DNA of 64,000 bases, taken from positions 94,614,001 to 94,678,000 of the forward strand of contig NW_024704742.1 of the NCBI RefSeq assembly GCF_018977255.1, written 5' to 3'. The DNA comes from Callorhinchus milii. Lineage: Eukaryota. Made by a program: the position numbers and the translations under genes. The notes under the pieces are model-generated. The model made no database searches and was not told where the DNA came from. It saw nothing but the letters and a program-made list of their open reading frames with translations. This document shows positions 811-58,224 of this stretch, in pieces (the stretch's first letter is position 1; each line of letters begins with the position of its first letter).

Positions 811-1648
811 AGTCTATTTGGTTTATCTTTGAATGTCTACCTTTAGAGAACTTTTTAAATTATTTTAGTTGGGAATACTGTATGATTTTTAAAAAATTAT
901 ACTTAAAATGAGACTTTAAGAAAAGAAATTCTAGCAAACCTAGTTTAGAATTGCAGGCCTTAGTGATATTTAAATTATTACCAGGTCTGAGGTGGATGGA
1001 CCAGCTTTTAATAGTACAGTAAACCTCACTTAAGTTGTATCAGTTGGGATCATACATGTAATATGACTTGTACAAATTATGAGTTATGTGAAACTTGCTT
1101 AAGTCGTATCATATATGACTTATGTAAAGTTATGTATAAGTCTGAGTTATTACTAATAGAAGCCTCGATGTCTGACAGGCAATTAGTCAGAACAGCAGGA
1201 GTCAAGGATAGAGAGCGAGTGCCATCCGTGTACATGTGGAAGTGACCCCAATGCCCGTGGGTGATATCACCGTGTGAGTATGTGGTTGGTGAAGAGGAGA
1301 TGCTCAAAGACAGAACCCTGAGGAACACCGCATATGTTCCATCATCTCCTGCTCTTCCCATTTTCCTGCTGAAAGTCCATTTTAAAACAAAGCTACTGGC
1401 TTGTAAGTCTTCATTTTAAATCTAAAATGGGATGTATTATTTGGTGGTCACACTTTTCTAACCATAAACCAGGGTCATTTATGAAACCACTTCCACTCAG
1501 TCCTGCCCGTAATGTAGTGTCTTGTCAGTAGCACATAATACGTTTCTCCCATGCATTTGAAAACCTTTGGTTAAGCCCAGATGATGGACTTGCATCCCAT
1601 CTATTGTATTTTAGTAGCACCTAATGAAACATGATCTCCAATATTAAT

Positions 1649-1852
1649 ATAGAAGTCGCTAGGAACACACAGCAGGTCAGGTAGCATCCATGGAGAAAGG
1701 AAAATTAGTTAACGTTTCAGGTCTATGACCTTTCGTCAAAATGGTAACTCGTTTTCCTTTCTCCATGGATGTTACCTGACCTGCTGCGTGTTCCTAGTGA
1801 CTTCTATGTTTGTACCAGATTTCCATCATTTGCATTACTTTGCCTTTTGTTT
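1649..1852. mobile_element. Palindromic Penelope pseudo-LTR-derived non-autonomous element with a hammerhead-like core
   Basis: ~65-bp inverted arms at 1649-1713 and 1743-1807, with sequence shared with the Penelope end at 44853-44925. Flanked by the 14-bp direct repeat TCTCCAATAT(T/C)AAT at 1635-1648 and 1853-1866. Confidence 0.75.
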
Positions 1853-2039
1853 TCTCCAATATCAATGTTACCCCTGACTTGTGAGACTACTTTAGTAATT
1901 GAAGTGTTTTTCAAAAACCTGGTAAGTAGGGAAAAACTTTTATAATCTTGCAACTGAGAAGCAATTATACTGTTGTATGTCTAAGTGCTTCAGTTCTTTT
2001 TATATAAAGTGCAGTGACTGCATTTGGAGGTGAGTGTAG

Positions 2040-6877: not shown

Positions 6878-7555
6878 AGGAACATAGGATTAGAAGGAGG
6901 CCATTCAGCCCTTCAGGTCTGTTCCGCCATTTAATTAGATTATGGCTGATCTGTACCTCAACTAATCTTTTAAATTCCAATTTCCCGCTTTCTGCCCATA
7001 TTCTTTAATACCCTGATCTACCAAAAATCTATCCACCTCACTCTTGAAGGTGTGGATGGATCCAGCATCCACAGCCTTTTTGGGGAGAGAATTCCAGATT
7101 TCTACCACCCTTTGAGTGAAAAAATGCTTCCTAATTTCACTCTTAAACGGCCTGGTTCTAATTTTAAGACTATTCCCACTTGTATTGGATTCCCCCACCA
7201 GAGGAAATAGCTTCTCTGTATCTACCCTATCAAATCCCTTTATCATCTTAAACACCTCAATCAAATCACCCCTCAACCTTCTAAACCCAATGGTTTACGC
7301 AGCCTTTCCTCATAACGTAACCCTTTAAGGCTGGTAACATTCTGGTGAAGCTACACTGCAACCCCTCCAGAGCCAATATATCTTTCCTGAGGTGTGGTGC
7401 CCCAAACTGAACGGACTACTCCAGATGGGGTCTGACTAACGCTCTATACAGCTGAAGCATCATTTCTTCCCCTTTGTATTCCTGGTCCCTTGAGATAAAG
7501 ACCAACATTCCATTCACCTTTTTGATTACTTTTTCCACCTGAAAACTAGTTTTTA
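6878..7555 (-). mobile_element. CR1 LINE 3' part (continues at 10551-10750 after an L2 insertion)
   Basis: ORF 6962..7276 (RGDLIEVFKMIKGFDRVD...FFTQRVVEIWNSLP) is a typical CR1 ORF2 C-terminus, followed by a CR1-type 3' UTR. Confidence 0.92.
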
Positions 7556-10550
7556 CAACAACAAGATTCCATTTATAGAGTCCCTTTCACGTCAGGAGGA
7601 TGTTCCAAAGCGCTGGACAGTTGGGTCAGGACCCGAGCAGGGGGGAAATGGTCAGGGTGAGGGGAGGGAAGGGAGGGAGCAAGGAGGGGGGAGAGAGTCG
7701 AGAAGGGAGCTGAAGGCACGGTCAAAGAGAAAGGTCTTGAGACCGGCCTTGAAGGAGGAAAGGGAGGAGGCGCGAAGGCACTGGGGGATGGAATTCCAGA
7801 GCCTCGGGGCTGAGAGGCTGAAGGTCCGGCCACCGATGGTAGGGCGGTTGGGGCGGGCGATGTGGAGCAGACCGGAGCCAGAGGTAGGGGGATAGTAGGT
7901 CGGAGAGGTAGGAGGGAGCGAGGCTGTGAATGGCTTTGTGGGCGAGGATGAGGATCTTGAATTCGATCCTCTGGGGGATGGGAAGCCAGTGGAGGCGAGC
8001 GAGGGTGGGAGTGATGTGGTCGCGAAGCTTGATGCGGGACAGTACACGAGCTGCAGAGTTCTGAATGACCTAAACTTACGACCTAAACCACTCAAGGACA
8101 GGGCCTTGAAGGTTGAGGTGGGAGGACAAGCGGTGGAGGAGGATAGCATGGTCGACCGTATCGAATGCTGCCGATAGGTCGAGGAGGCAGAGGGAGCCCT
8201 GGTCTCAGATGGTCAAGATGTCATTGGTGACCTTGACCAGGGCGGTTTTTGTGCTATGGGCAGCACGGAAACCCAACTGAAGGGATTCGAATAATGAATG
8301 GGTGGAGAGGAAAGAGCGCAGCTGGGAGGCGATAACTCTTTCAAGGTCCTTGGACAGGAAGGGGAGTTTGGAGATGGGCCGGTAGCTTGATAGCTGCGAC
8401 GCATCAAGGGAGGGTTTTTTCAAAGTGGGAGTGATGATGGCAGTTTTTAGTGGAATGGGAACAGAGCCAGAGGAGAGGGACAGGTTGATGATTTCTGTGA
8501 TATGTGAGGCAAGGAGGTGGAGCTGAGAGATGAGGAGTGGGGATGGGGTCAAGGGAGCAGGTGGTGGGTTTCAGGGACAGGATGAGTTTGGTGACAGAGG
8601 GTGGGGAAACGGGTATGAAGGTGTGCAGGGGAGGATGGGTAGGAGTCGAAGTGTGGGAGGGAGGGGGTGGGGGGTTGGGTGGAAGTTGGAGGGGGAGTGA
8701 CCGCGGAGCTGATTCCCTTGATTTTGGATTCAAGGAAATCCAGCATCTCCTCGCAGTGAAAGTTGGAGGAGATGACCTGCGCGGGGTGGCGGGGGGACGG
8801 AGGAGTCGGGATGTGGTAGAAAACAGAAGCCTGGGATTGTTATTCGCCTCCAGGATTATCCTGGAGTAGAAGGACGACTTGGCCGAGGCTAGAGTGGAGC
8901 GGTAGATTTTGAGGAGGTCCAGCCAGATTTGTCGGTGGACCATTAGGCCAGATTTTAGGCAGGTGCGTTCAGCGGCCCGCACCTGGCTCTTCAGTGAGCG
9001 GAGGTGGGTGGTGAACCAGGGGGAGGAGCGAGAGTAGGAGACAGTATGGGATGTGATGGGGGCAAGTGTGTCGAATGTGGAGGAGAGGGTGTTGTGGAGG
9101 AGGGTGAGAGGAGAAGAGGGGTCAGTGAGGGTTGAAGGCCAGAGGGAGAGGAGTTCAGAGGACTCCAAGGCAGCGGTTAGGGATTGTGGGGGTAACTTCT
9201 TCCAGGGGCGGTAGAAGATGGTGGTGGGTCTGGTGGAGGTGGGGAGGGGGTTGGAGGTGGTGAAAGAGATGAAGTGGTGATCGGAGACGGCTTTGTCGGT
9301 AATGGTGACATCCGAGACACTGAGGCCCCGGGTGATCACCAAATCGAGTGGGTGGCCGTGACTGAGTGGCGGTGTTGATGTGGAGGGAGAGGTTGAGCGA
9401 GGAGAACAGGGAAGAGAAGTTCGAGGAGATGGAGCAGGAGGGGGTGAAGTGCAGGTTGAAGTCGCCCAGGATGATGAGGCGATCAGAGCAGAGGCAGAGA
9501 GATGTAAGTAGTGTAGAAATATCGGAGATGAAGGTGGGAGAGGTTTTAGGGGGCCGGTAGAGGAGGAGGATTTTGAGTGAGAGGAAGGAGGGGTGGGAGA
9601 GGGTGAGGTGCTCGAAAGAGGGGAAAGAGCCAGAGGAGTAGGGGGATAGGGCAAGTGGTGTCCTTGAGATAAGGGCTACACCACCGCCACGGCGGTTGGG
9701 GCGAGGGATGTGGTGGGAGGTGTAGCCGGGTGGTGTGGCCTCCGTGAGGGGGAAGGTGTCGCCTGGGGTGAGCCAGGTTTCTGTTAAGGCCATGATATCA
9801 ACGCTCTCATCAAGGATGAGATCGTTGATGACCAACCAGGGCCTTGTTACAGAGGGAGCGGACGTTTTGTAGTCCGATGTGGAGGGAGCGTGTGGGGAGG
9901 GAGGGGGGTCCAGGGTGTGAGGCAGGGTTGGGGGGGATGGGGATGAGGGAGGAGAGGTTGACTCCCCGGGTCTGTGTCTGGGGTGGCTGGCGAGTGTGGT
10001 GGGGAATGGGGCAGTCGGTGTGGCTGCTGCTGGACAGCCAACGCCGAGTGCCACGGTGAGCCCGGCGGAGGATTCCCAGGCTGGAGCAGAGGGAGGTTGT
10101 GGGAGGGTCAAATGGGGATAGAAGGCGAGAGGGACGGAGAGAGAGGAGGACAGAGCAGGAGAGATGCAGAAGGGGGAGGGTTTGGGGGGAGAGAGGAGGA
10201 GGGAGGGGGTGAGGGGGCTCGGGTCAGAGCGGCAGCCATAGTGCGCATGCGGGGACCGGGAGCGAGCGGTCAGGTGGATGGCATTAGCCCATAGGCTGGG
10301 GCTGGGGCAGCCAACCCAACAGGACCATGGTGGGCCCTGATGCGAGCCCCGGGGGGCGCAGAGGTTTGTGTGTTTTTTTTTGTTGCGCGCGCGCACACTC
10401 CTGAAACTAAACTATGACGTCAGCGGTTCCCCCGCTGCGCCCCCACACCGCCCCCTTCCCCCCCTAGCTGAACTCCCTGCCGCCTCGTGCTTTATTACCT
10501 GAGAAGGTAGGCCCAGGCTCCTCCCCGCGCTGTCCTGCCGCCGCTCCCCG
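7556..10550 (-). mobile_element. L2-clade LINE with a long 5' extension; APE and RT frameshifted; internal deletion near 8075
   Basis: APE motifs ALTETWL, RRGGGVAL, LGDFNLH and SDH; RT segment [20 protein letters not shown]; 3' end ataaatggaatcttgttgttgt. Confidence 0.9.
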
Positions 10551-10750
10551 TTTTAGTGATTTGTGGATATGGACACCCAAATCCCTTTGCTCCTCCACAG
10601 TTCTTAATTTCTCCCCATTAAGAAAATATTCTGCTTTATCTTTTTTCGGTCCTTCGTGGATGACCTCATACTTTCTTACATTGAACTCCATCTGCCACAG
10701 CTTTGTCCACTCACTTATAAGACCCTTTGTAACTTCCTACTCCCATCTAT
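10551..10750 (-). mobile_element. CR1 LINE continuation
   Basis: ORF 10464..10691 (MEFNVRKYEVIH...EQRDLGVHIHKSLK) rejoins the CR1 sequence at 7555. Confidence 0.88.
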
Positions 10751-10844
10751 AGTTTTAATGGGTTGGAGAAACAGACACGAAAGTATTCTGCTTCTAATTT
10801 GTGATGTGTTGGATGTATAATCCGTCTTTCACCAATAGATTTTT

Positions 10845-11182
10845 CCTCCTCGGGCGGGCGGCGGGCTCCTCGGGCGGGTGGGCTCCTCGGGCGGGTGGGC
10901 GGGCTCCTCGGGCTCCTCAGGCGGGCGGGCGGGCTCCTCGGGCTCCTCGGGCGGGTGGGCTCCTCGGGCGGGTGGGCGGGCTCCTCGGGCTCCTCAGGCG
11001 GGCGGGCTCCTCGGGCGGGCGGGCGGGCTCCTCGGGCGGGCGGGCGGGCTCCTCGGGCGGGCTCCTCGGGTGGGCTCCTCGGGCTCCTCAGGCGGGCGGG
11101 CGGGCTCCTCGGGCTCCTCGGGCGGGCGGGCGGGCTCCTCGGGCGGGCGGGCTCCTCGGGTGGGCTCCTCGGGCGGGCGGGC
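10845..11182. repeat. GC-rich compound tandem repeat of GGGCTCCTC and GGGC/GGGT units
   Basis: Directly visible; ~340 bp of interleaved units. Confidence 0.95.
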
Positions 11183-11730
11183 CTTGCTCTGTTGACCTGT
11201 CACTCACTCCGTCGACCTCTCGCTGTAACTGAACATCAGTTGAAGCTGCTTTGTGATGCAGTGATCACATTGTGATGTCACACCGGTGGAAATCGAGCTT
11301 TATTCTCCCGGTATTTTCTTTCATCCCAAAGATGGGAGTTGGAACATCCAAATCGAGTTGCGTGCTACGCATCCTTTTTAAAAAGCCATCGACCTCTGTA
11401 TAACACTGTCGATAGGGCAGCAGAACTGCTACGGATGGAGGGCTACAGCGTGGGAAACACTGAGATGTACGGTAAACCTCAGACATAGGCATGTTTGTTT
11501 TTAAAATTTAGTGACGGTGTTGAACAGAAGGGGTTCATGCTTCAGAGATTGTTGACGCTTAGTGTTGTATGTGAATTCTGTTGCTGAACGCTGGTACTGA
11601 TAGCTACCAGTAACCATATCTAAAGGCAGCAGCTGAATATTACTGTTGTCAAATATGATTATTCATACATCAGTTATGATATTCATGTATCTGTGTTTTC
11701 CATTGAGCATTTGTTTTGTGTTGTTTTCAG

Positions 11731-11852
11731 AAACTCTCGGATCTTTGGTCTGCTATCCCAGCTGGAGAAGACAAACTCTGATTCGGCATTGCTAGATGTC
11801 GATAATGCCCGTCATATTACCTCCAAGATTCTTCATTTGGCTCAGACTCAAG
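11731..11852 (+). CDS. AGTPBP1: AGTPBP1 exon ([40 protein letters not shown])
   Basis: ttttcag acceptor and G|GTAATA donor. The translation matches the recalled CCP1 N-terminus NSRIVGLLAQLEK...[11 protein letters not shown]. Confidence 0.93.
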
Positions 11853-14318: not shown

Positions 14319-14640
14319 TGGAGTCCTGTAGCTCAGTGGTTAGAGCACTTGCTTTGCAAGCGAGAGACCTGAGTTCAATTCCAGGCAGCGCGAAACCTTG
14401 GGCAAGTTTCCTTACTCCACACAGAGCCTAATAATAATCCCTCCAAAACCCAAAACAATAATAAATTGGTCATTTTCAATCTACGACTGTTTGTGGGACA
14501 TTGCTGTGCGCAATTGGCTGCCGCGTTGGCCCACAAATATACAGTCAATTCACTTTACAGTGTGTTCTGTGAAGCGCTTTGGGACGTCCTCCCGATGTGA
14601 AAAGCGCTATATCAAATGCAAGGATTATTATTATTATTAT
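14319..14640 (+). mobile_element. Young tRNA-Ala(TGC)-headed SINE, short variant, full length
   Basis: A and B boxes, anticodon arm CTTGC-TTTGCAA-GCGAG, L2-like tail and (ATT)n. Nearly identical to the copy at 24657-24962. Confidence 0.9.
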
Positions 14641-18685: not shown

Positions 18686-19017
18686 TGGAGTCCTGTAGCG
18701 TAGTGGTTAGAGAACTCGCCTCACAAGTGAGAGGACCTGGATTCGATTCCCGCAGGGCGAAACGTCAGACAAGTTTCCTTACTCCACGTGTCTCTGTTTA
18801 ACTAGCAGTAAGTAGGAACCTGATTGACAGATTGCTTTTCCAGGGGTAATAATTCTTCAAAGTAAAGTTTTAAAATAATTTGGTCACTCAATTCATGACT
18901 GTTTGTGGGACACTGCTGTGCGCAATTGGCTGCCACATTTCGGCCACAAAATATACAGTCAATTCACTTTACAATATATTCTGTGAAGCACTTTGAGACA
19001 TCTCAAAGACCTGATAA
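18686..19017 (+). mobile_element. tRNA-headed SINE, long variant; its tail resumes at 21214-21250 after an L2 insertion
   Basis: Family head plus an extra internal block 'tctctgtttaactagcagtaagtaggaacc'. The tail is split, with TGATAA duplicated on both sides of the L2. Confidence 0.85.
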
Positions 19018-21207
19018 CAACAACAAAATTACATTTGTATAGCCGAGCTGAGGGTGGGAGTGGGGGAAGGTGGGGGGGAAGCAGGGAGGCTCTTGAGGTG
19101 GGTCTTGAAGGTGGCGAGGGAGGGGTGAGATGGAGAGACTGCGGGATGGAGTTTCAGAGGGTGGCTGCAGTGTAGCGGATGGCCCACCTGCTGCTAGTGG
19201 GGCGATCAAGGGAGGGGACGTGAAGCAGACCAGAGCCCGCTGAGTGAACAGGGAGGTAGTGGGTTAGGAGGTCAGAGAGTTAGTGGGGGACAAGACAGTG
19301 GAGGGCTTTGAAGGTGAGGACCAGGATCTTGAACTGTTTTCTCTGTGTGATGGGAAGCCAGTGGAGTTGGGCGAGGATGGGGTGATAGGGTCACGGAGTC
19401 TGGTGCGGGAGAGGACATGCGCTGCACAATTCTGGATGATCTGCAGCCTATGGAGGGAGGAGTTGGGGAGGGCGACAAGCAGTGAGTTTGCATAGTTGAT
19501 CTTCAAAGTAATGAAGGCGTGTATAAGAGTTTCGGTGGCCTGTGATGTGAGACACTGTCGGAGCTGGACGATGTTGCAGACATGGAGGAAGGCAGAGCAG
19601 GTCATGGTGGAGATGTCAGATAGAAAGGATAATTGAGGGTCAAACAAGACCCCAAGGTTCCGGACTGACTTAGTAAGATGGAGTGTGCAACCATGGATGG
19701 TGATGCTGTGAGCGCCTGAGGTGTGGAGGCGCTGACAGGAGCCAATCAGGAGAGCCTTGGTCTTGTTGACATTCAACTGAAGAAAGTTAGCTCTCATCCA
19801 GGACTTGGATGTCTGACAGACATTCTATCAGGACATCAGTGGTCCTGGAGTCAAGGATGGAGGCAGAGAGGTAGAGTTGGGTGTCATCCGCATTGACCCC
19901 ATGTCTGTGGATGATGTCACCAAGAGGGAGCATATAGATGTTGAAGAGAAGGGGACCAAGGACAGAGCCCTGAGGAACGCCGCACAAGACGGTCCAGGGG
20001 ATAGAAGAGGAAGCCATTTGAGGAGATGAAGTGCAGGAAGTGTGAGAGGTATGATCTGAACCAATCAAGGACAGCGCTGTTGAGGTGAGAGGAGAGGCAT
20101 TGGATGAGGATAGAGTGGTCAATGGTGTCGAAATCAGCAGAGAGGGCAAGGAGGATGAGGAGGCAGAGGGAGCCCTGGTCGCAGATGGACAGAATGTCAT
20201 TTGTCACTTTGACCAGGGCTGTTTCTGTGCTGTGAGTGGCACAGAAACCCGATTGGAGGTGGGAGAGAAAGGGGCGAAGCTGAGACGCAACAACTTGTTC
20301 CAGGACCTTGGAGAAGAAGGGAAGGTTGGAGGTGGGGCGGTAGTTAGGGAGTAGAGGAGGGTCCAGGGAGAGTTTTTTAAGGATAGGAGTAATGACAGTA
20401 TTTTTTAAAGGGGTGGGAACAGTACCAGAAGTCAGGGAGAGGTTAGTGAGTAGAGGGGCAAGGAGGTGGAACTGGGAAGTAAGGAGGGGAGTAGGGATAG
20501 GGTCAAGGGAGCAGGTGGTTGTGGATTTCATACGAGTGTTGGTGGTGATGAAAGAGGAGGAGGAGAAGGGTTCAAAGGTGTGAAGGGAGGGGTGGGATGG
20601 GAAGAGGTGATGGAGAGGGGGTAACAGTGGCAGAGGCAACTGAGGGGATTCCCTCGACTTTGGATCCGAGGAAGTCCAGCATCACCTTGCAGTTGGCATT
20701 TGAGATGAGGATGGGTGAGGCATGAGAGGGTGGGCAGAGGAGTCGGTTCATGATGGAGAAGAGGAGCCTGGGGTTGTCCTTAGCCTCTAAGATTGTCTTG
20801 GAGTGGAACAATGATTTAGCGGAGGCGAGGGCGGAATGGTAGGATTTGACATGGTCCAGCCAAATCTGCCGGTGGACATTTAGGTTTGATTTAAGCCAGG
20901 TGTGCTCAGCGGAACGCGCTTGGGCTTTAAGGGAGCGGAGGTAGCTGGTGTACCAAGGTGATTTGGTGAGTAGGAGACAGTTCGGAAGAGAGAGGAGCGA
21001 GGGAATCAAGAGTGGAGGAGAGGGAGCTGTGGAGAAGGGTGACCGAGGAGGATAGGTCATTGTGGGAGGTCGCCCAGAGGAGAAGGAGTTCAGGTGACTC
21101 TAAGGCAGCCGAGAGAGTGGGGGGGGGAGATTTTTTTCCAGGGGCGTATGAGATGGAGGTGGGTTGGGTGGTGGTGGGGAGAGGGATTGAGGAGTTGATC
21201 ACCAGGT
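19018..21207 (-). mobile_element. 5'-truncated, frameshifted L2 ORF2 with 6-bp TSD TGATAA
   Basis: Translations [20 protein letters not shown] and NFLQLN. TGATAA occurs at 19012-19017 and 21208-21213. Confidence 0.9.
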
Positions 21208-24656: not shown

Positions 24657-24962
24657 TGGAGTCCTGTAGCTCAGTGGTTAGAGCACTCGCTTTGCAAGCG
24701 AGAGACCTGAGTTCAATTCCAGGCAGCGCGAAACCTTGGGCAAGTTTCCTTACTCCACACGCCTAATAATAATCCCTCCAAAACCAATAATAAATTGGTC
24801 ATTTTCAATCTACAACTGTTTGTGGGACATTGCTGTGTGCAATTGGCTGCCGCGTTCGCCCACAAATATACAGTCAATTCACTTTACAGTGTGTTCTGTG
24901 AAGTGCTTTGGAACGTCCTCCCGACGTGAAAAGCGCTATATCAAATGCAAGGATTATTATTA
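24657..24962 (+). mobile_element. Young tRNA-Ala(TGC)-headed SINE inserted into a minus-strand DeuSINE (24410-24995)
   Basis: Perfect anticodon arm CTCGC-TTTGCAA-GCGAG. The host sequence resumes after the (ATT)n tail with 'gtttaatgtctcatctgaagg'. Confidence 0.9.
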
Positions 24963-29303: not shown

Positions 29304-29948
29304 GAATTGGATACCACACTAATAAGATTGAATGTAATTGATACAATGTCATATTGTGATCACAAATGGATACCACAGTATCGTGAAGTAAATTAGAACG
29401 GTTCAGACCAGCAAACAAATATAGTGTGTCCTATACATCTAACAGCCTTAGATGCTTCTGAAATGTCAGCAGAATACTGGTTCAGATGGAGATAAAACAA
29501 CAACAATTTGCATTTATATAGAGCCCTTCACACAGGGTAGTGCTCCGGATCTCACGGCACAATTCGAAAAGAAGGGAATTTCTCCCTTGTGACCTGGGCA
29601 ACATTTCTCCAAATTAAAATTGGTTATTAATTTCATGGCTGTTTGTAAGATATTGTTATGCCCAAATTGGCTGCCACATTTGCCGAGAAAATACAGTCAC
29701 TACGCTTTGAGATGTCCTCCAGATGTGAAAGATGCTACATTAAATGCAATTTTTATAGATTCTGTAGATTCTCTGAAAATGAAAACTAGCAACAAGAATT
29801 TGTGTAGGCTCAACATATTAGACCTAAATATCACTTTAGATTTAACTGTTTTTGCCCGAAACAAACTTTAACTTTCAAGTAATTCCTCTTGTGTCATGCC
29901 AACAAATTCTGCATTTGGAAGAAACATCTGTTTCTCAATGGTGGGTAC

Positions 29949-31757
29949 ATTAAAAACTGCCATCATCACGCCCACCCTGAAAAAACCCTCCCTTGATGCG
30001 TCGCAGCTATCAAGCTACCGGCCCATCTCCAACCTCCCCTTTCTCTCCAAGGTCTTGGAAAGAGTTGTCGCCTCCCAACTGCGCTCTTTCCTCTCCACCC
30101 ATTCTCTTTTTGAACCCCTTCAGTCAGGTTTCCGTGCTGCTCATAGCACAGAAACTGCCCTGGTCAAGGTCACCAATGATATCCTGACTATCTGTGACCA
30201 GGGCTCCCTCTGTCTCCTCGTCCTCCTCGACCTATCGGCAGCATTCGATACGGTCGACCACGCTATCCTACTCCACCGCTTGTCCTCCCACCTCAACCTT
30301 CAAGGCACTGTCCTTGAATGGTTTAGCTCTTACCTTTCCCACCGTCTTCACTTCGTCTCAACGAATGGCTTCTCCTCCACCCCCCGTACTGTCTCATGTG
30401 GTGTCCCTCAGGGCTCTGTCCTCGGTCCCCTCCTCTTCAACAACAACAACAACAAGATTCCATTTATAGAGCGCCTTTCACGTCAGGAGGACGTCCAGCG
30501 CTGCACAGTTGGTCATGACCGAGCAGGGAAATGGTCAGGGGGAGGAAGGGAGGGAGCGAGGGGGGGAAATGGTCAGGGTGAGGGAGGGAGGAGGGAGGGG
30601 GGGAATGGTCAGGGGAGGGGAGGGAAGGGAGGGAGAGAGGAGGAGGAAGAGAGTCTTCACCCTCTATATGCTCCCCCTCGGTGACATCATCCGCAAACAT
30701 GGGGTTAACTTCCACATGTATGCGGATGACACCCAACTCTACCTTTCCTCCTCTACTCTCAACTCCACGACCACCGATGTCCTGACAGCTGCCTGTCCGA
30801 CATCGAGTCCTGGACGAGAGACAACTTTCTTCAGCTCAACGTGCGAAAAACCGAGGCCCTCCTGATTGGCTCACGTCAGCGCCTCCGCACCTCAGGCGCT
30901 GACACCATCAGCATCCAAGGCTGCACTCTCCACCTCTCAAAGCCAGTCAGGAACCTCGGCGTTTTGTTCGACCCTGAGCTGTCCTTTCTCCCTCACATCC
31001 GCACCACAACTGGCACCGCCTTCCATCACCTCCGGAATATCGCCAGATTACGGCACTACCTCACCCCTCACGCTGCTGAAACCCTGGTTCACGCCTTTGT
31101 CACCTCAAGGCTGGACTATGGGAACTCTCTCCTCGCCGGCCTTCCCGCCACCTCCCTCCACAAGCTGCAGGTCATTCAGAACTCTGCAGCTCGTGTACTG
31201 TCCCGCACCAGGACCACATCACTCCCACCCTCGCTCGCCTCCACTGGCTCCCCATCCCCCAGAGGATTGATTTCAAGATCCTCATCCTCACCTACAAGGC
31301 CATTCACGGCCTTGCTCCCTCCTACCTCTCCAACCTACTATCCCCCTACCTACCTGCCCGTACCCTCCGTTCCTCTGGCTCCGGTCTGCTCCACGTCCCC
31401 CGCCCCAACCGCCCTACTATCGGTGGTCGGGCCTTCAGCCTCTCAGCCCCCAGGCTCTGGAACTCCATCCCCCAGTGCCTTCGCCGCCTCCTCCCTTTCC
31501 TCCTTCAAGGCCGGTCTCAAAACCTTTCTCTTTGACCGTGCCTTCAGCTTCCCTCTCGACTCTCTACCCCCTCCTCGCTCCCTCCCTTCCCTCCCCTCAC
31601 CCTGACCATTTCCCCCCTCCTCTCTCCCTCCCTTCCCTCCCCTCACCCTGACCATTTCCCCCCTGCTCGGGTCATGACCCAACTGTGCAGCGCCTTGGGA
31701 CGTCCTCCTGACGTGAAAGGCGCTCTATAAATGGAATCTTGTTGTTGTTGTTGTTGT
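29949..31757 (+). mobile_element. Young 5'-truncated L2 (RT to 3' end) with a (TTG)n tail
   Basis: ORFs 29896..30684, 30509..30865 ([11 protein letters not shown]) and 30841..31605. Highly similar to the copy at 7556-10550. Confidence 0.93.
30440..30653 (-). mobile_element. L2 3'-end fragment inserted antisense into the L2 RT, with TSD TCTTCA
   Basis: (CAA)n followed by gattccatttatagagcgcc, the reverse complement of the 31560-31757 end. TCTTCA occurs at 30434-30439 and 30654-30659. Confidence 0.9.
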
Positions 31758-44213: not shown

Positions 44214-44849
44214 GTAAGTGCTTTATCTGGTTATATACAGTATATAAGTTAACTATTAAAGATGGGCATCATTTTTCACAATTCTTCTTGTTAACTTCCT
44301 CCCTCCACTCTTGAAGACATTGCCTCTTGCTGGTGTATATTTTCATAGACACCTCTTTAGAGTAATCAGTGTTTGTGTGTGTGTTGTGAGAACCCAACAG
44401 TGTTGTCATTGTTATTCATTAACCTGTGGGGAGCAATAAAGCCTAGCCCGATCCTTGTACTGATAGCATTCACACACATGCATTTGTTGACTTGAATCAC
44501 TGTTCAGCTAGCAGGAGCTCTGATTATTTTCCTTTCCATAGTCCAATATTACTGAGTTCCATTTCTATCGGGACACTTTTTTTAAAACAGTGTATTGTAG
44601 AAGAAACTGCTGCTTTCCATTTCATTTCAGTTGCTTTTTGGACCATTTAAGTTGGTGAAATTTACTTTACCTTTGGTTGTGAAAGAGTAACCGTGAAGCC
44701 TAACTTTTTCAGTCTCCTCTTGTTTAGTTTTATATGTATAAATAGCCCAGATTGATGCATCCCGCTGGGTAAATTTGAAAAAGGGTTCTCAGTGTTCAGC
44801 AGACTGTTCTCAGTGAGTGCAAATGGTAATATGAAAGTAGAAATTACAC

Positions 44850-45760
44850 ATTCAGCAGGTCAGGCAGCATCTATGGAGAAAGGAAAGTGAGTCAACGTTT
44901 CGGGTCCAAGACCTTTTGTCAGAGCTGGGGCATGTTGGGAGGGAGAGGCTTTTAAGGGTTAACAAAGCGTGGGGATGCAGGGCAAGGAAAACAAAGGGGA
45001 AAATGGGGTAGAGGACAGGAGATGATGGGTTAAAGAGGTGTTAATAATGCAAAACAGTGTGGGGGATTGCAACAAAACAGGCAGACCAGAGAGAGAAAAG
45101 GTGTGTCTGGGACCCAGATGGTAATGGTCACCAAAGAAGGGGAGGGTGAAGTTGAGCTGTTATGGTCTGTAATTGTTGAAATCAATATTGAGGCCAGAGG
45201 GCAGATAAATGAGGTGCTATTCCTTGAGCTTGCGCTGTGGCTCATTGGAACAGCGTAGGAGACAGTGGATGGAGAGGTCAGTGTGTGAGTGGGAGGGAGA
45301 GTTGAAGTGGCAAGAAGCTGGAAGCTCAGGGTTGTGTTTGTGGACAGAACGGAGGTGTTCGGCAAATTGGTCACCCAATTTACGTTTTGTCTCCCCAATG
45401 TAGAGGAGACCACATCGTGAGCAGCAAATGCAGTAAACTACATTGGTGGTATTACACGTAAATTGCTGACTCACTTGAAATTTGTGTTTGGGGCCCTGGA
45501 CAGTGGAATGGGAGGAAGTGAAAAGGCAGGTATTGCATTTCCTGCGCTGGCATGGGAAGGTGCCAGGGAGAGGAGAGCAATTGTTGGTGGTGAAGGAGGA
45601 ATGAACCAAGCAGTCACAGAGGGAACGGTCCCTTCGGAATGGTGGGAGGGGAGGGAAAGATATGCTTAGTGGTTGGATCACGCTGGAGGTGCTGGAAATG
45701 GCAGAGAGTTATTTGTTGGATGTTGTGTCTGGTGGGGTAGGAGGTGAGGACTAAGGGTAT
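44850..45760 (-). mobile_element. Penelope-like retroelement 3' fragment: GIY-YIG endonuclease and pseudo-LTR
   Basis: ORF 45217..45681 contains PC..RKCNTC...FTC.TTNVVYCI.C.RCGLLYIGETKR.L..F.EH...HFN. ORF 45614..45898 contains IPLVLTSYP. Confidence 0.9.
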
Positions 45761-45890
45761 AGAGAGCAGGGGGTAGAGAGTCGAGAGGGGAGCTGAAGGC
45801 ACGGTCAAAGAGAAAGGTCTTGAGACCAGCCTTGAAGGAGGAAAGGGAGGAGGCAAGGCGAAGGCACTGGGGGATAGAGTTCCAGAGCCA
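45761..45890 (-). mobile_element. Tail-less L2 3' fragment abutting the Penelope fragment
   Basis: Nearly identical to 7690-7805. Confidence 0.85.
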
Positions 45891-46134
45891 GTCGTCAATA
45901 TATCTGAGGAACAGGTCAGGGAATGGACCTGAGTAAGATGACTGAGGCCCCTTTAAGATGATTGTTTTTACATCAATCCTCCATCCCGCTTGTCACTGCA
46001 AGAAATCTTTGCAAACAAGGAAATGTGCGAGTTACATGAGATGCTTTATACAGAAGTGATTGCATAGTGCGATTAATAAATAACATATGTTTATTTCTAT
46101 TTAGAAATGTTTTAAAATTTTTATTTCATAATAG

Positions 46135-56830: not shown

Positions 56831-57047
56831 GGTAGTGCTTATTGACTGAACCTTTCCTGTTTGCCCAATTATTTCCCAAACATCTGTTCTCCATTGATTC
56901 ACTTTACACATGTATTTTGTCAGCTCTCATCTTGAAAGATGCAGTGCTTGAAATAATTTAAATGAAAATGGAGACGTCTTCTGAGGCCTTGTGTAGTGGG
57001 TCATGGCACATGCAGATCAGAGTTAGCTGATCTCAGCTGTGATACAA

Positions 57048-58224
57048 CAACAACAAAATTACATTTGTATAGCACCTTTCACTTCGGGAGGACGTCCCAA
57101 GGCGCTGGACAGTCAGTGTTTCGGACCCGAGTTGGTCATCGGGATTGGGGAGGGTGGAGGGCAGGGGGGGAAGGAGGGTGATCGAAGGCATGGTCGAAGA
57201 AGAGTCTTGAGATGGGTCTTAAAGGAGGCAAGGGAGGGGCCGAGGCAGAGGGTCTGCGAGATGGAGTTCCAGTGGGTGGGGGCAGAGTGGATGAAGGCTC
57301 GCCCGTCAATAGTGGGGCGGATGAAGCGGGAGACATGAAGCAGGCCGGAGCCCACTGAGTGGAGGGAGAGGGCAGGTTTGTAGGGGGTTAGGAGGTCGCA
57401 AAGGTAGGGTGGAGCAAGGCAATGTAGGGCTTTGAGATGAGGACCAGGATCTTGAACTGTATCATCTGTGTGATGGGAAGCCAGTGGAGTCAGGTAAGGA
57501 TGGGGGTGATAGGGTCACAGAGCCTGGTGCGGGAGAGGACACAGGCTAAAGAGATCTGGACGATCTGCAGGCTATAGAGGGAGTCTTTGGGGAGGCTGAC
57601 AAGCAGGGAGTTTGCATAGTCGAGACTGGATGTTATGAATGCGTGTATGAGGGTTTTGGCAGTCTGCGGTGAGACAGTGACGGAGCCGAGTGATGTTGCG
57701 GAGGTGGGGGAAGTCAGAGCGGGTCATGACACAGATGTGGGGTAGAAAGGATAGTTAGGGTCAAACAAGATGCCAAGGTTTTGGACTGGCTTAGCAAGGT
57801 GGAGTGTGTATCCTTGAATGGTGATGCTGTCAGTGCCTGAAGTGTGGAGGCACTGACGGGAGCCAATCAGGAGAGCCTCGGTCTTGTTGACTTTCAACTG
57901 AAGAAAGTTAGCTCTCATCCAGGACTTGATGTCTGACAGTCATTCTGTCAGCACAGCAGTGGTTCTGGAGTCAGAGTTGGAGGCAGTGTTGGGTGTCATC
58001 TGCATATATGTGGAAGTTGCCCCAGCCTCGGGTGATGTCACCAAGAGGGAGCATATAGATATTGAGCTGTTTCTGTGCTGTGGGCGGCACGGAAACCCGA
58101 TTGGAGGGGTTTGTGAAGGGTGTGGTGGGAGAGGAAGGAGTGAAGCTGGGAAGCAACGACTCGTTACAGGACCTTGGAAAGGAAAGGGAGGCTGGAGATG
58201 GGGCGGTAGTTTGAGAGCAGGGTG
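57048..58224 (-). mobile_element. Degenerate L2 with an internal deletion; candidate TSD TACAA
   Basis: Translations YADDTQ and MRANFLQL; (CAA)n tail. TACAA occurs at 57043-57047 and 58225-58229. Confidence 0.87.

Follow-up and report, generated by a model that had tools for sequence, protein, structure and literature searches.

The unit at positions 1635 to 1866 of the window (the whole stretch of 64,000 nucleotides of DNA from Callorhinchus milii, the elephant shark, a chimaera) most likely is what remains of a Penelope-like retrotransposon with an endonuclease: a dead insertion with extreme 5' truncation, in the form of a copy, an inverted copy, and a one-sided tail. The unit is ordinary in kind, as its insertion pattern has already been published for Penelope-like elements (PLEs), and its hairpin is a by-product of insertion rather than a replicating RNA. 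A single unit of this type matters little, being the dead stub of an abundant retroelement with a known layout. It also is a compact record of one insertion, with both cDNA starts and both stop points within 204 bp, and such stubs, examined genome-wide, could address two questions about Penelope: how the inverted pLTR arises and whether, in vivo, the template is cleaved by the hammerhead. The features of the unit and of its relative in the window are collected in Table 1.

Table 1. Features of the Penelope-like unit, its hammerhead, and the related fragment (positions in the window)
Feature	Position	Strand	Evidence or remark
Probable target-site duplication, left copy, 14 bp, A+T-rich	1635..1648		13/14 identical to 1853-1866
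97-bp 5'-truncated Penelope-like pLTR end, hammerhead-bearing, without tail	1649..1745	-	Matches 44846-44921 at 85.5% across 76 nt
Head-to-head junction of the two pieces	1742..1746		0-3 nt assignable to either side (register comparison)
Inverted second piece, 62 bp	1746..1807	+	Departs from the left piece at 5 positions out of 63
One-sided pLTR "tail," 45 bp	1808..1852	+	Contigs of other copies resemble the tail by eye
Probable target-site duplication, right copy	1853..1866		13/14 match to the left copy
Decayed minimal type I hammerhead	1707..1743	-	Numbered after the min-HHR described in PMC4209133, by analogy
Stem I	5' strand 1743-1740, one base short; 3' strand 1710-1707	-	Part of the hammerhead
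Core positions 3-9	1739-1733	-	Part of the hammerhead; U at position 3 (1739), G8 kept
Stem II, 5 bp	1731-1727/1723-1719	-	Part of the hammerhead
GAAA	1718-1715	-	Part of the hammerhead
Palindromic helix III, ACGT	1715-1712	-	Part of the hammerhead
Predicted cleavage site	between 1711 and 1710	-	Part of the hammerhead
Longer, also broken Penelope-like fragment: ORF end with GIY-YIG, 3' UTR, pLTR end with hammerhead	44846..45760	-	Profile, protein, and nucleotide matches

The original prediction described 65-bp arms with about 6 mismatches inside 14-bp direct repeats, and both were recovered. When the arm at 1649-1713 is aligned with the reverse-complemented 1743-1807, 6 mismatches appear over 65 positions, and an inverted-repeat search extended the pair to 1646-1717/1739-1810 (72 nt, 89%). 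The direct repeats, identical at 13 of 14 positions, lie 204 bp apart. Pairs of this quality (at least 14 nt with at most one mismatch, abutting a segment of equal size) turned up at 105 of 200,000 random window positions and, with 5 nt of slack allowed at each end, at 36 of 20,000. A repeat pair that brackets the unit beyond chance supports the earlier proposal that the unit was inserted in a single event that left its own target-site duplication (TSD).

The unit is asymmetric, with no counterpart of 1808-1852 on the left. Its left piece ends 1 to 3 nt past the 5' strand of stem I, with an inner boundary that is uncertain within 1742-1745, and contigs from other copies cover 1651-1738 of this piece. 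At its first unambiguous base (1746), the second piece begins with the counterpart of the base that directly follows the predicted cut, and several of the differences between the two pieces fall at CpG sites. The computed fold of the unit (-116.1 kcal/mol, z of -15.8) merely restates the inverted repeat. Two other identities were considered and rejected. A MITE or another DNA transposon does not fit a unit whose inverted repeats are nonterminal (45 bp separate the right arm from the direct repeat) and whose sequence is that of a retroelement end. For a microRNA precursor, all Rfam matches were below the gathering score and reflected the hairpin only. The similarity of one arm to the tRNA-derived SINE copies of the window (24.7 bits, E of 0.49) was taken as chance.

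The origin from Penelope, for which a GIY-YIG-bearing relative at 44850-45760 had been cited, held up. The nucleotide match of the unit to 44846-44921 has an E of 1.7e-19 and is the only significant one elsewhere in the window. In the longer fragment, the GIY-YIG domain itself is weak (PF01541, E of 0.0099, below the curated cutoff). The fragment (tblastn span, 45166-45760) is 48 to 57% identical to four proteins out of 245 candidates, three of them named from ray and shark, and all four contain GIY-YIG. A weak RVT_1 match (E of 0.0077, below the cutoff) lies N-terminal to GIY-YIG in one of these four relatives, and a reverse transcriptase domain is absent from both window copies, the unit and the 44.8-kb fragment. 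On these matches, the unit is pLTR sequence from an element whose C-terminal domain is a GIY-YIG endonuclease, as in an EN+ PLE. Neither a TSD nor an inverted arm was found for the 44.8-kb fragment, and its hammerhead has kept C3 and carries A at position 8. The fragment lies in a later intron than the unit. Directly next to it is a 129-bp segment (45761-45889) with 94% identity to 31453-31579, where another repeat ends, and a weak protein match continues at 45873-45941.

The layout of the unit agrees with published insertions. As described in two reports, Penelope inserts lie next to an inverted pLTR that is the shorter one, a tail of 31 bp is present on one inverted pLTR, and the TSDs measure 8 to 10 bp (Arkhipova et al. 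2013, PMC3846280), and truncated Penelope-like insertions have the same layout with a tail of 30 to 40 bp at one end (Craig et al. 2021, PMC8557442). Like these EN+ insertions, the unit contains an inverted, 5'-truncated copy that is adjacent at the 5' end, head to head, and shorter than its partner; it has a tail on a single arm (45 bp at 1808-1852, absent on the left, which we counted as equivalent to the one-sided tail of about 30 to 40 bp), a probable TSD around the whole unit, an A+T-rich target, and strong 5' truncation. In contrast to the examples given there, this copy is devoid of any coding sequence (97 plus 107 bp), and its TSD of 14 bp and tail of 45 bp somewhat exceed the 8 to 10 bp and 30 to 40 bp, respectively, of those examples. 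The inverted arm that begins at the predicted cleavage site is a feature of this copy and lies outside the descriptions cited from PMC3846280 and PMC8557442.

A protein with the required activities has been described for the anole Anolis carolinensis, in a Poseidon element named PAc (Frangieh et al. 2024, PMC11167929). According to the part of that report used here, in which inverted junctions are not a subject, the PAc protein cleaves and extends both target strands, favors A+T-rich DNA, and uses two adjacent RNA start sites whose spacing equals the tail, while the PAc hammerhead is dispensable in vitro and no RNA-seq reads start at its cleavage site. Together, these ingredients (two-strand cutting and extension, two reverse transcription starts, and an A+T-rich target) would yield a unit like the present one. 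PAc is a Poseidon, whereas the chimaera element is placed as an EN+ PLE, with Poseidon and Neptune as its candidate clades.

We therefore slightly favor a two-ended priming route to the unit. By this route, a GIY-YIG/RT protein would have cleaved the two strands of an A+T-rich target at points separated by 14 nt, as the length of the TSD suggests, and each free 3' end would have primed reverse transcription on pLTR RNA, a step suggested by the geometry of the unit and by the in vitro behavior of the anole Poseidon protein. On the same grounds, synthesis on the top strand would have used the inner start site, giving an end at 1649 with no tail, and synthesis on the bottom strand would have used the outer start site, giving an end at 1852 with the tail. 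Both cDNAs would have halted early, and the places where they end can be read from the sequence: one lies just past the 5' edge of the hammerhead and the other at the cleavage site or helix III. The two cDNA ends would then have been joined with an overlap of 0 to 3 nt and repaired. The copy has decayed since then: its arms now are 8% apart, C3 has become T, and stem I is shorter. L1 insertions can arise by twin priming, which the two-ended route resembles except that here both arms copy the same sequence; this would need two RNAs or the two pLTRs of one tandem RNA.

A different route, which we consider unlikely, is that a single nascent strand folded back and primed its own extension, with the fold-back point set by stem I complementarity or by palindromic helix III. 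Palindromes at inverted junctions are read as self-priming, with an antisense template for the head-to-head form, in the accessible part of PMC3846280, and the second arm of our unit begins where the 3' strand of stem I begins, as stem I pairing predicts without cleavage. However, a pure stem I fold-back leaves one copy of the 4-nt pairing sequence, whereas the junction keeps both copies, 2 to 3 nt apart. Additionally, the first arm has no tail, so the tail of the second arm cannot have been templated by it.

The loop between the arms was expected to contain a hammerhead core on the minus strand, and a hammerhead-like motif with T at position 3 of its core was located at 1743..1707. It was the sole match to a relaxed pattern of core plus stem II on both strands of the 64 kb, and the presence of stem II and a palindromic helix III supports its earlier assignment to the minimal hammerheads of the dimer type. 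Rfam hammerhead families gave no match at the gathering score across the window and no match at an E of 10 or less in 1550-1950 or 1698-1745. The core of CUGANGA, GAAA, and NUH is incomplete in this copy through the T at 1739. In the predicted folds, stem II paired with a probability of 0.95 to 1.0, while the pairing probability of stem I did not exceed 0.001, whether or not the second arm was included; when the entire element was folded, the 3' strand of stem I instead found its partner in the inverted arm (0.63 to 0.99). Since the inverted arm occupies this strand, the hairpin form would work against cleavage, and the predicted competition between fold-back and ribozyme fold counts against a hairpin RNA that replicates via self-cleavage.

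The hammerhead in this copy is very probably inactive, as U3 stands opposite G8 and stem I is predicted not to form. The original prediction had derived inactivity from the T in place of C3; this is supported, and the lesion in stem I is a further defect. In the hammerhead of the anole element, mutation of C3 and mutation of G8 each lead to a loss of activity (PMC11167929), and the natural variant recorded in the part of PMC4209133 available to us combines U3 with A8. As far as that part of PMC4209133 goes, our hammerhead resembles the min-HHRs of PLEs in its extra base between positions 9 and 10.1, its short stem I, its palindromic helix III without a stable stem, its location in a pLTR, and its occurrence in a family of the kind found as thousands of solo copies per genome. 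It differs from them in combining U3 with G8 rather than with A8 as in the described variant, in having A-U instead of G-C at 10.1-11.1, and in its 5-bp stem II and broken stem I. The same source reports that pairs of min-HHRs on opposite strands occur in PLEs, although most are single motifs from truncated PLEs.

Other copies of the family were examined in contigs of 4 public runs (X1, X5, X7, and X8, out of 24 runs) that aligned to 1380-1765 at 80% likeness. In these data, contigs are not equivalent to copies and depth is not equivalent to copy number, and all figures for loose ends and pieces refer to those listed, beyond which there are 261 further loose ends and 4,129 further pieces. Alignments were obtained for 2,028 contigs in X1, 631 in X5, 1,363 in X7, and 84 in X8, and the pLTR family is abundant. 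None of the runs is on record as RNA; X5 is RNA only by guess, and no evidence of transcription was drawn from its contig on 1380-1531. X8 was excluded from the letter counts, as its changes (G>A and C>T) are of the type expected after conversion of a library. An X8 contig on 1380-1499 has 17 differing letters, of which those listed are all G>A, as in a bisulfite-type library, and such conversion also explains the zero word share of X8. Exact-pattern scans of metagenome, genome, and viral contig sets gave 0 matches, which is expected for a fish repeat and therefore uninformative.

The contigs showed that the family core differs from that of this copy. Loose ends at 1738 share the first six consensus letters in three runs (209 contigs in X1, 44 in X5, and 53 in X7, among the ends listed), and this consensus gives C3 and the full 5' strand of stem I, with an agreement over all 30 letters of only 0.42 to 0.46. 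Thus, the T of this copy is a local C-to-T change accompanied by the loss of one base, and the possibility that the consensus lacks CUGANGA, which would have spoken against the original prediction, was decided in its favor, as the family consensus has C3 in all three runs. Past the six common letters (1738-1744), the X7 consensus continues, by eye, like the body of the 44.8-kb fragment. In X1 and X5 the consensus becomes rich in A+T at that point, with little agreement among the contigs, and many X1 and X5 copies may end just upstream of the hammerhead. On the other side, loose ends before 1651 (118 in X1, 37 in X5, and 79 in X7 among those listed, with an agreement of about 0.54) resemble 1808-1852 by eye, which identifies this segment as the tail of the family.

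The same contigs bear on the proposal that the unit belongs to a dedicated, nonautonomous family of palindromic mini-elements, transcribed, processed by the hammerhead, and moved as a unit by Penelope proteins. Among the X1 contigs listed, 6 have opposite-strand joints and 2 more run over the right end, whereas 254 (22, 209, and 23 with loose ends at 1734, 1738, and 1742, respectively) are not folded back and continue into sequence that aligns nowhere in the stretch. The summed depth was 21 to 43 at 1744-1765 versus 11,195 at 1731-1743. These observations lean toward fold-backs being a minority of the copies that reach the hammerhead. Assemblers break at young palindromes, so fold-backs are probably undercounted in contigs. 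The X1 joints listed fall at 4 places (1686/1758, 1688/1738 three times, 1700/1738, and 1704/1751), and those of X7 are at 1694/1737 and 1696/1733. Five contigs with joints at 1737-1738 (4 in X1 and 1 in X7) could share the junction of this copy. A similar junction occurs in up to 4 X1 contigs, one of which possibly represents this very locus. Additionally, one diverged X5 contig (record 16; 313 nt, 15 differing letters, and 2 gaps) spans 1656-1765 and hence the junction, which indicates a similar junction at a second locus. On the question of variable ends, the result leans against the original prediction in that the fold-back joints listed lie at several places, yet this X5 contig has a junction like ours, as the members of a small palindromic subfamily would.

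We regard such a mobile palindrome as very unlikely. It could draw on the probable TSD at both ends, on the C3 of the family core, and on the similar junctions in X5 and X1. Furthermore, the accessible parts of two reports state that a pLTR alone sufficed for mobilization in trans in a rotifer (PMC3846280) and that nonautonomous PLE derivatives are on record (PMC8557442). Against this, fold-backs make up at most 8 contigs compared with 254 others among those listed for X1, their joints lie at several places, the single hammerhead has no tandem partner, and stem I is predicted to lose its 3' strand to the inverted arm, so that the hairpin opposes cleavage. The claim of a dedicated family was not supported: most copies that reach the hammerhead, among the contigs listed, are not folded back, and the layout is that of published truncated Penelope insertions.

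The description of the unit as retrozyme-like fared no better. Animal retrozymes, as presented in the accessible text of Cervera and De la Pena 2020 (PMC7229834) and Li et al. (bioRxiv 10.64898/2026.07.22.740005), are head-to-tail tandem direct repeats with a complete hammerhead in each of at least two units, and an origin of retrozymes from pLTRs has already been proposed in the literature. The unit shares with the non-LTR retrozymes outlined there a noncoding sequence a few hundred bp long, a low G+C content, a type I hammerhead, and derivation from PLE pLTRs. However, those retrozymes form tandem direct repeats and circular RNAs, whereas here there is one head-to-head unit with one dead hammerhead. 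Identity with a non-LTR retrozyme was rejected, since there is no tandem, the arrangement is head to head, and the one hammerhead is decayed, with a stem I that is not formed in the predicted folds.

An assembly of the unit from two independent events (a solo pLTR stub followed by a second insertion or a local inverted duplication, with the 14-bp repeat left by one of them or present by chance) appears highly improbable. The two arms share letters that few family members have (5% of X1 depth at 1682, 16% at 1689, and 31% at 1704), a pattern that a single event drawing on one subfamily would produce, and a single repeat pair encloses the whole unit. The divergence of the arms (5/63) and of the repeats (1/14) also is similar in size. 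In favor of separate events, PLEs tend to insert beside existing copies (PMC6765202), and the chance of an accidental repeat is low yet not nil (the 36 of 20,000 positions found with slack). Moreover, the left TSD copy partly resembles family sequence, as two contigs from other loci (X1 record 1 and X5 record 10) align from exactly 1635 (1635-1723, with 16 to 17 differences); these alignments may reflect either a target preference in common or a likeness between the repeat and the family tail. No empty site was found among the 4 runs, of which X1 has no cover of the left flank, where a hole proves nothing.

Returning to the truncated insertion, its inverted arm starts 0 to 3 nt from the predicted cleavage site. 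It is conceivable, although quite unlikely in our judgment, that the inner end of this arm marks the 5' end of a template RNA that had been cut by the ribozyme. If so, the inverted-arm starts of the family's fold-back stubs would pile up at the hammerhead cleavage site, and the genome would hold a record of the minimal hammerhead cutting Penelope RNA in vivo during transposition, which was not seen in the in vitro work on the anole element as far as the accessible part of PMC11167929 reports it. The similar junction in one other contig (X5 record 16) bears on this reading. However, 3 nt at the boundary can be assigned to either side, an arm start at this very position would also be expected from stem I pairing or from a reverse transcriptase that stops at the structure, and the loose ends listed show no pile at 1710-1713. 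A search of the literature, mostly outside subscription journals and without Repbase or Dfam, gave nothing specific on inverted arms that start at a cleavage site or on palindromic nonautonomous PLEs. The one lead worth counting genome-wide is whether inverted arms start at the cleavage site beyond what stem I pairing or chance would give.

The unit most likely sits in an early intron of the gene for cytosolic carboxypeptidase 1 (presumably AGTPBP1), where its hammerhead would be in antisense orientation relative to that gene. The exon at 60887-61672 matches the Callorhinchus milii protein with 100% identity, and coding exons for residues 12 to 751 run along the plus strand from 11732 to 63455. 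The early-intron location follows from the first of these exons, which begins with residue 12 at 11732, and from residues 1 to 11, which were not found in the plus frames of the window. Intron RNA from the gene strand is predicted to form a long hairpin (-117.5 kcal/mol) that might serve as an editing substrate. About 450 bp upstream of the first coding exon of the window, a G+C-rich, tandem-like stretch (10747-11275) has low-complexity reading frames on both strands. Rfam tRNA matches at 709-765, 14322-14393, 18689-18760, and 24660-24731 head copies of a repeat of 300 to 350 bp that is frequent in the window and that we take to be a tRNA-derived SINE. Four mutually similar segments (7555-10411, 19091-21198, 29948-31748, and 57044-58220) have endonuclease- and reverse transcriptase-like reading frames and presumably are fragments of an L2/CR1-type LINE.
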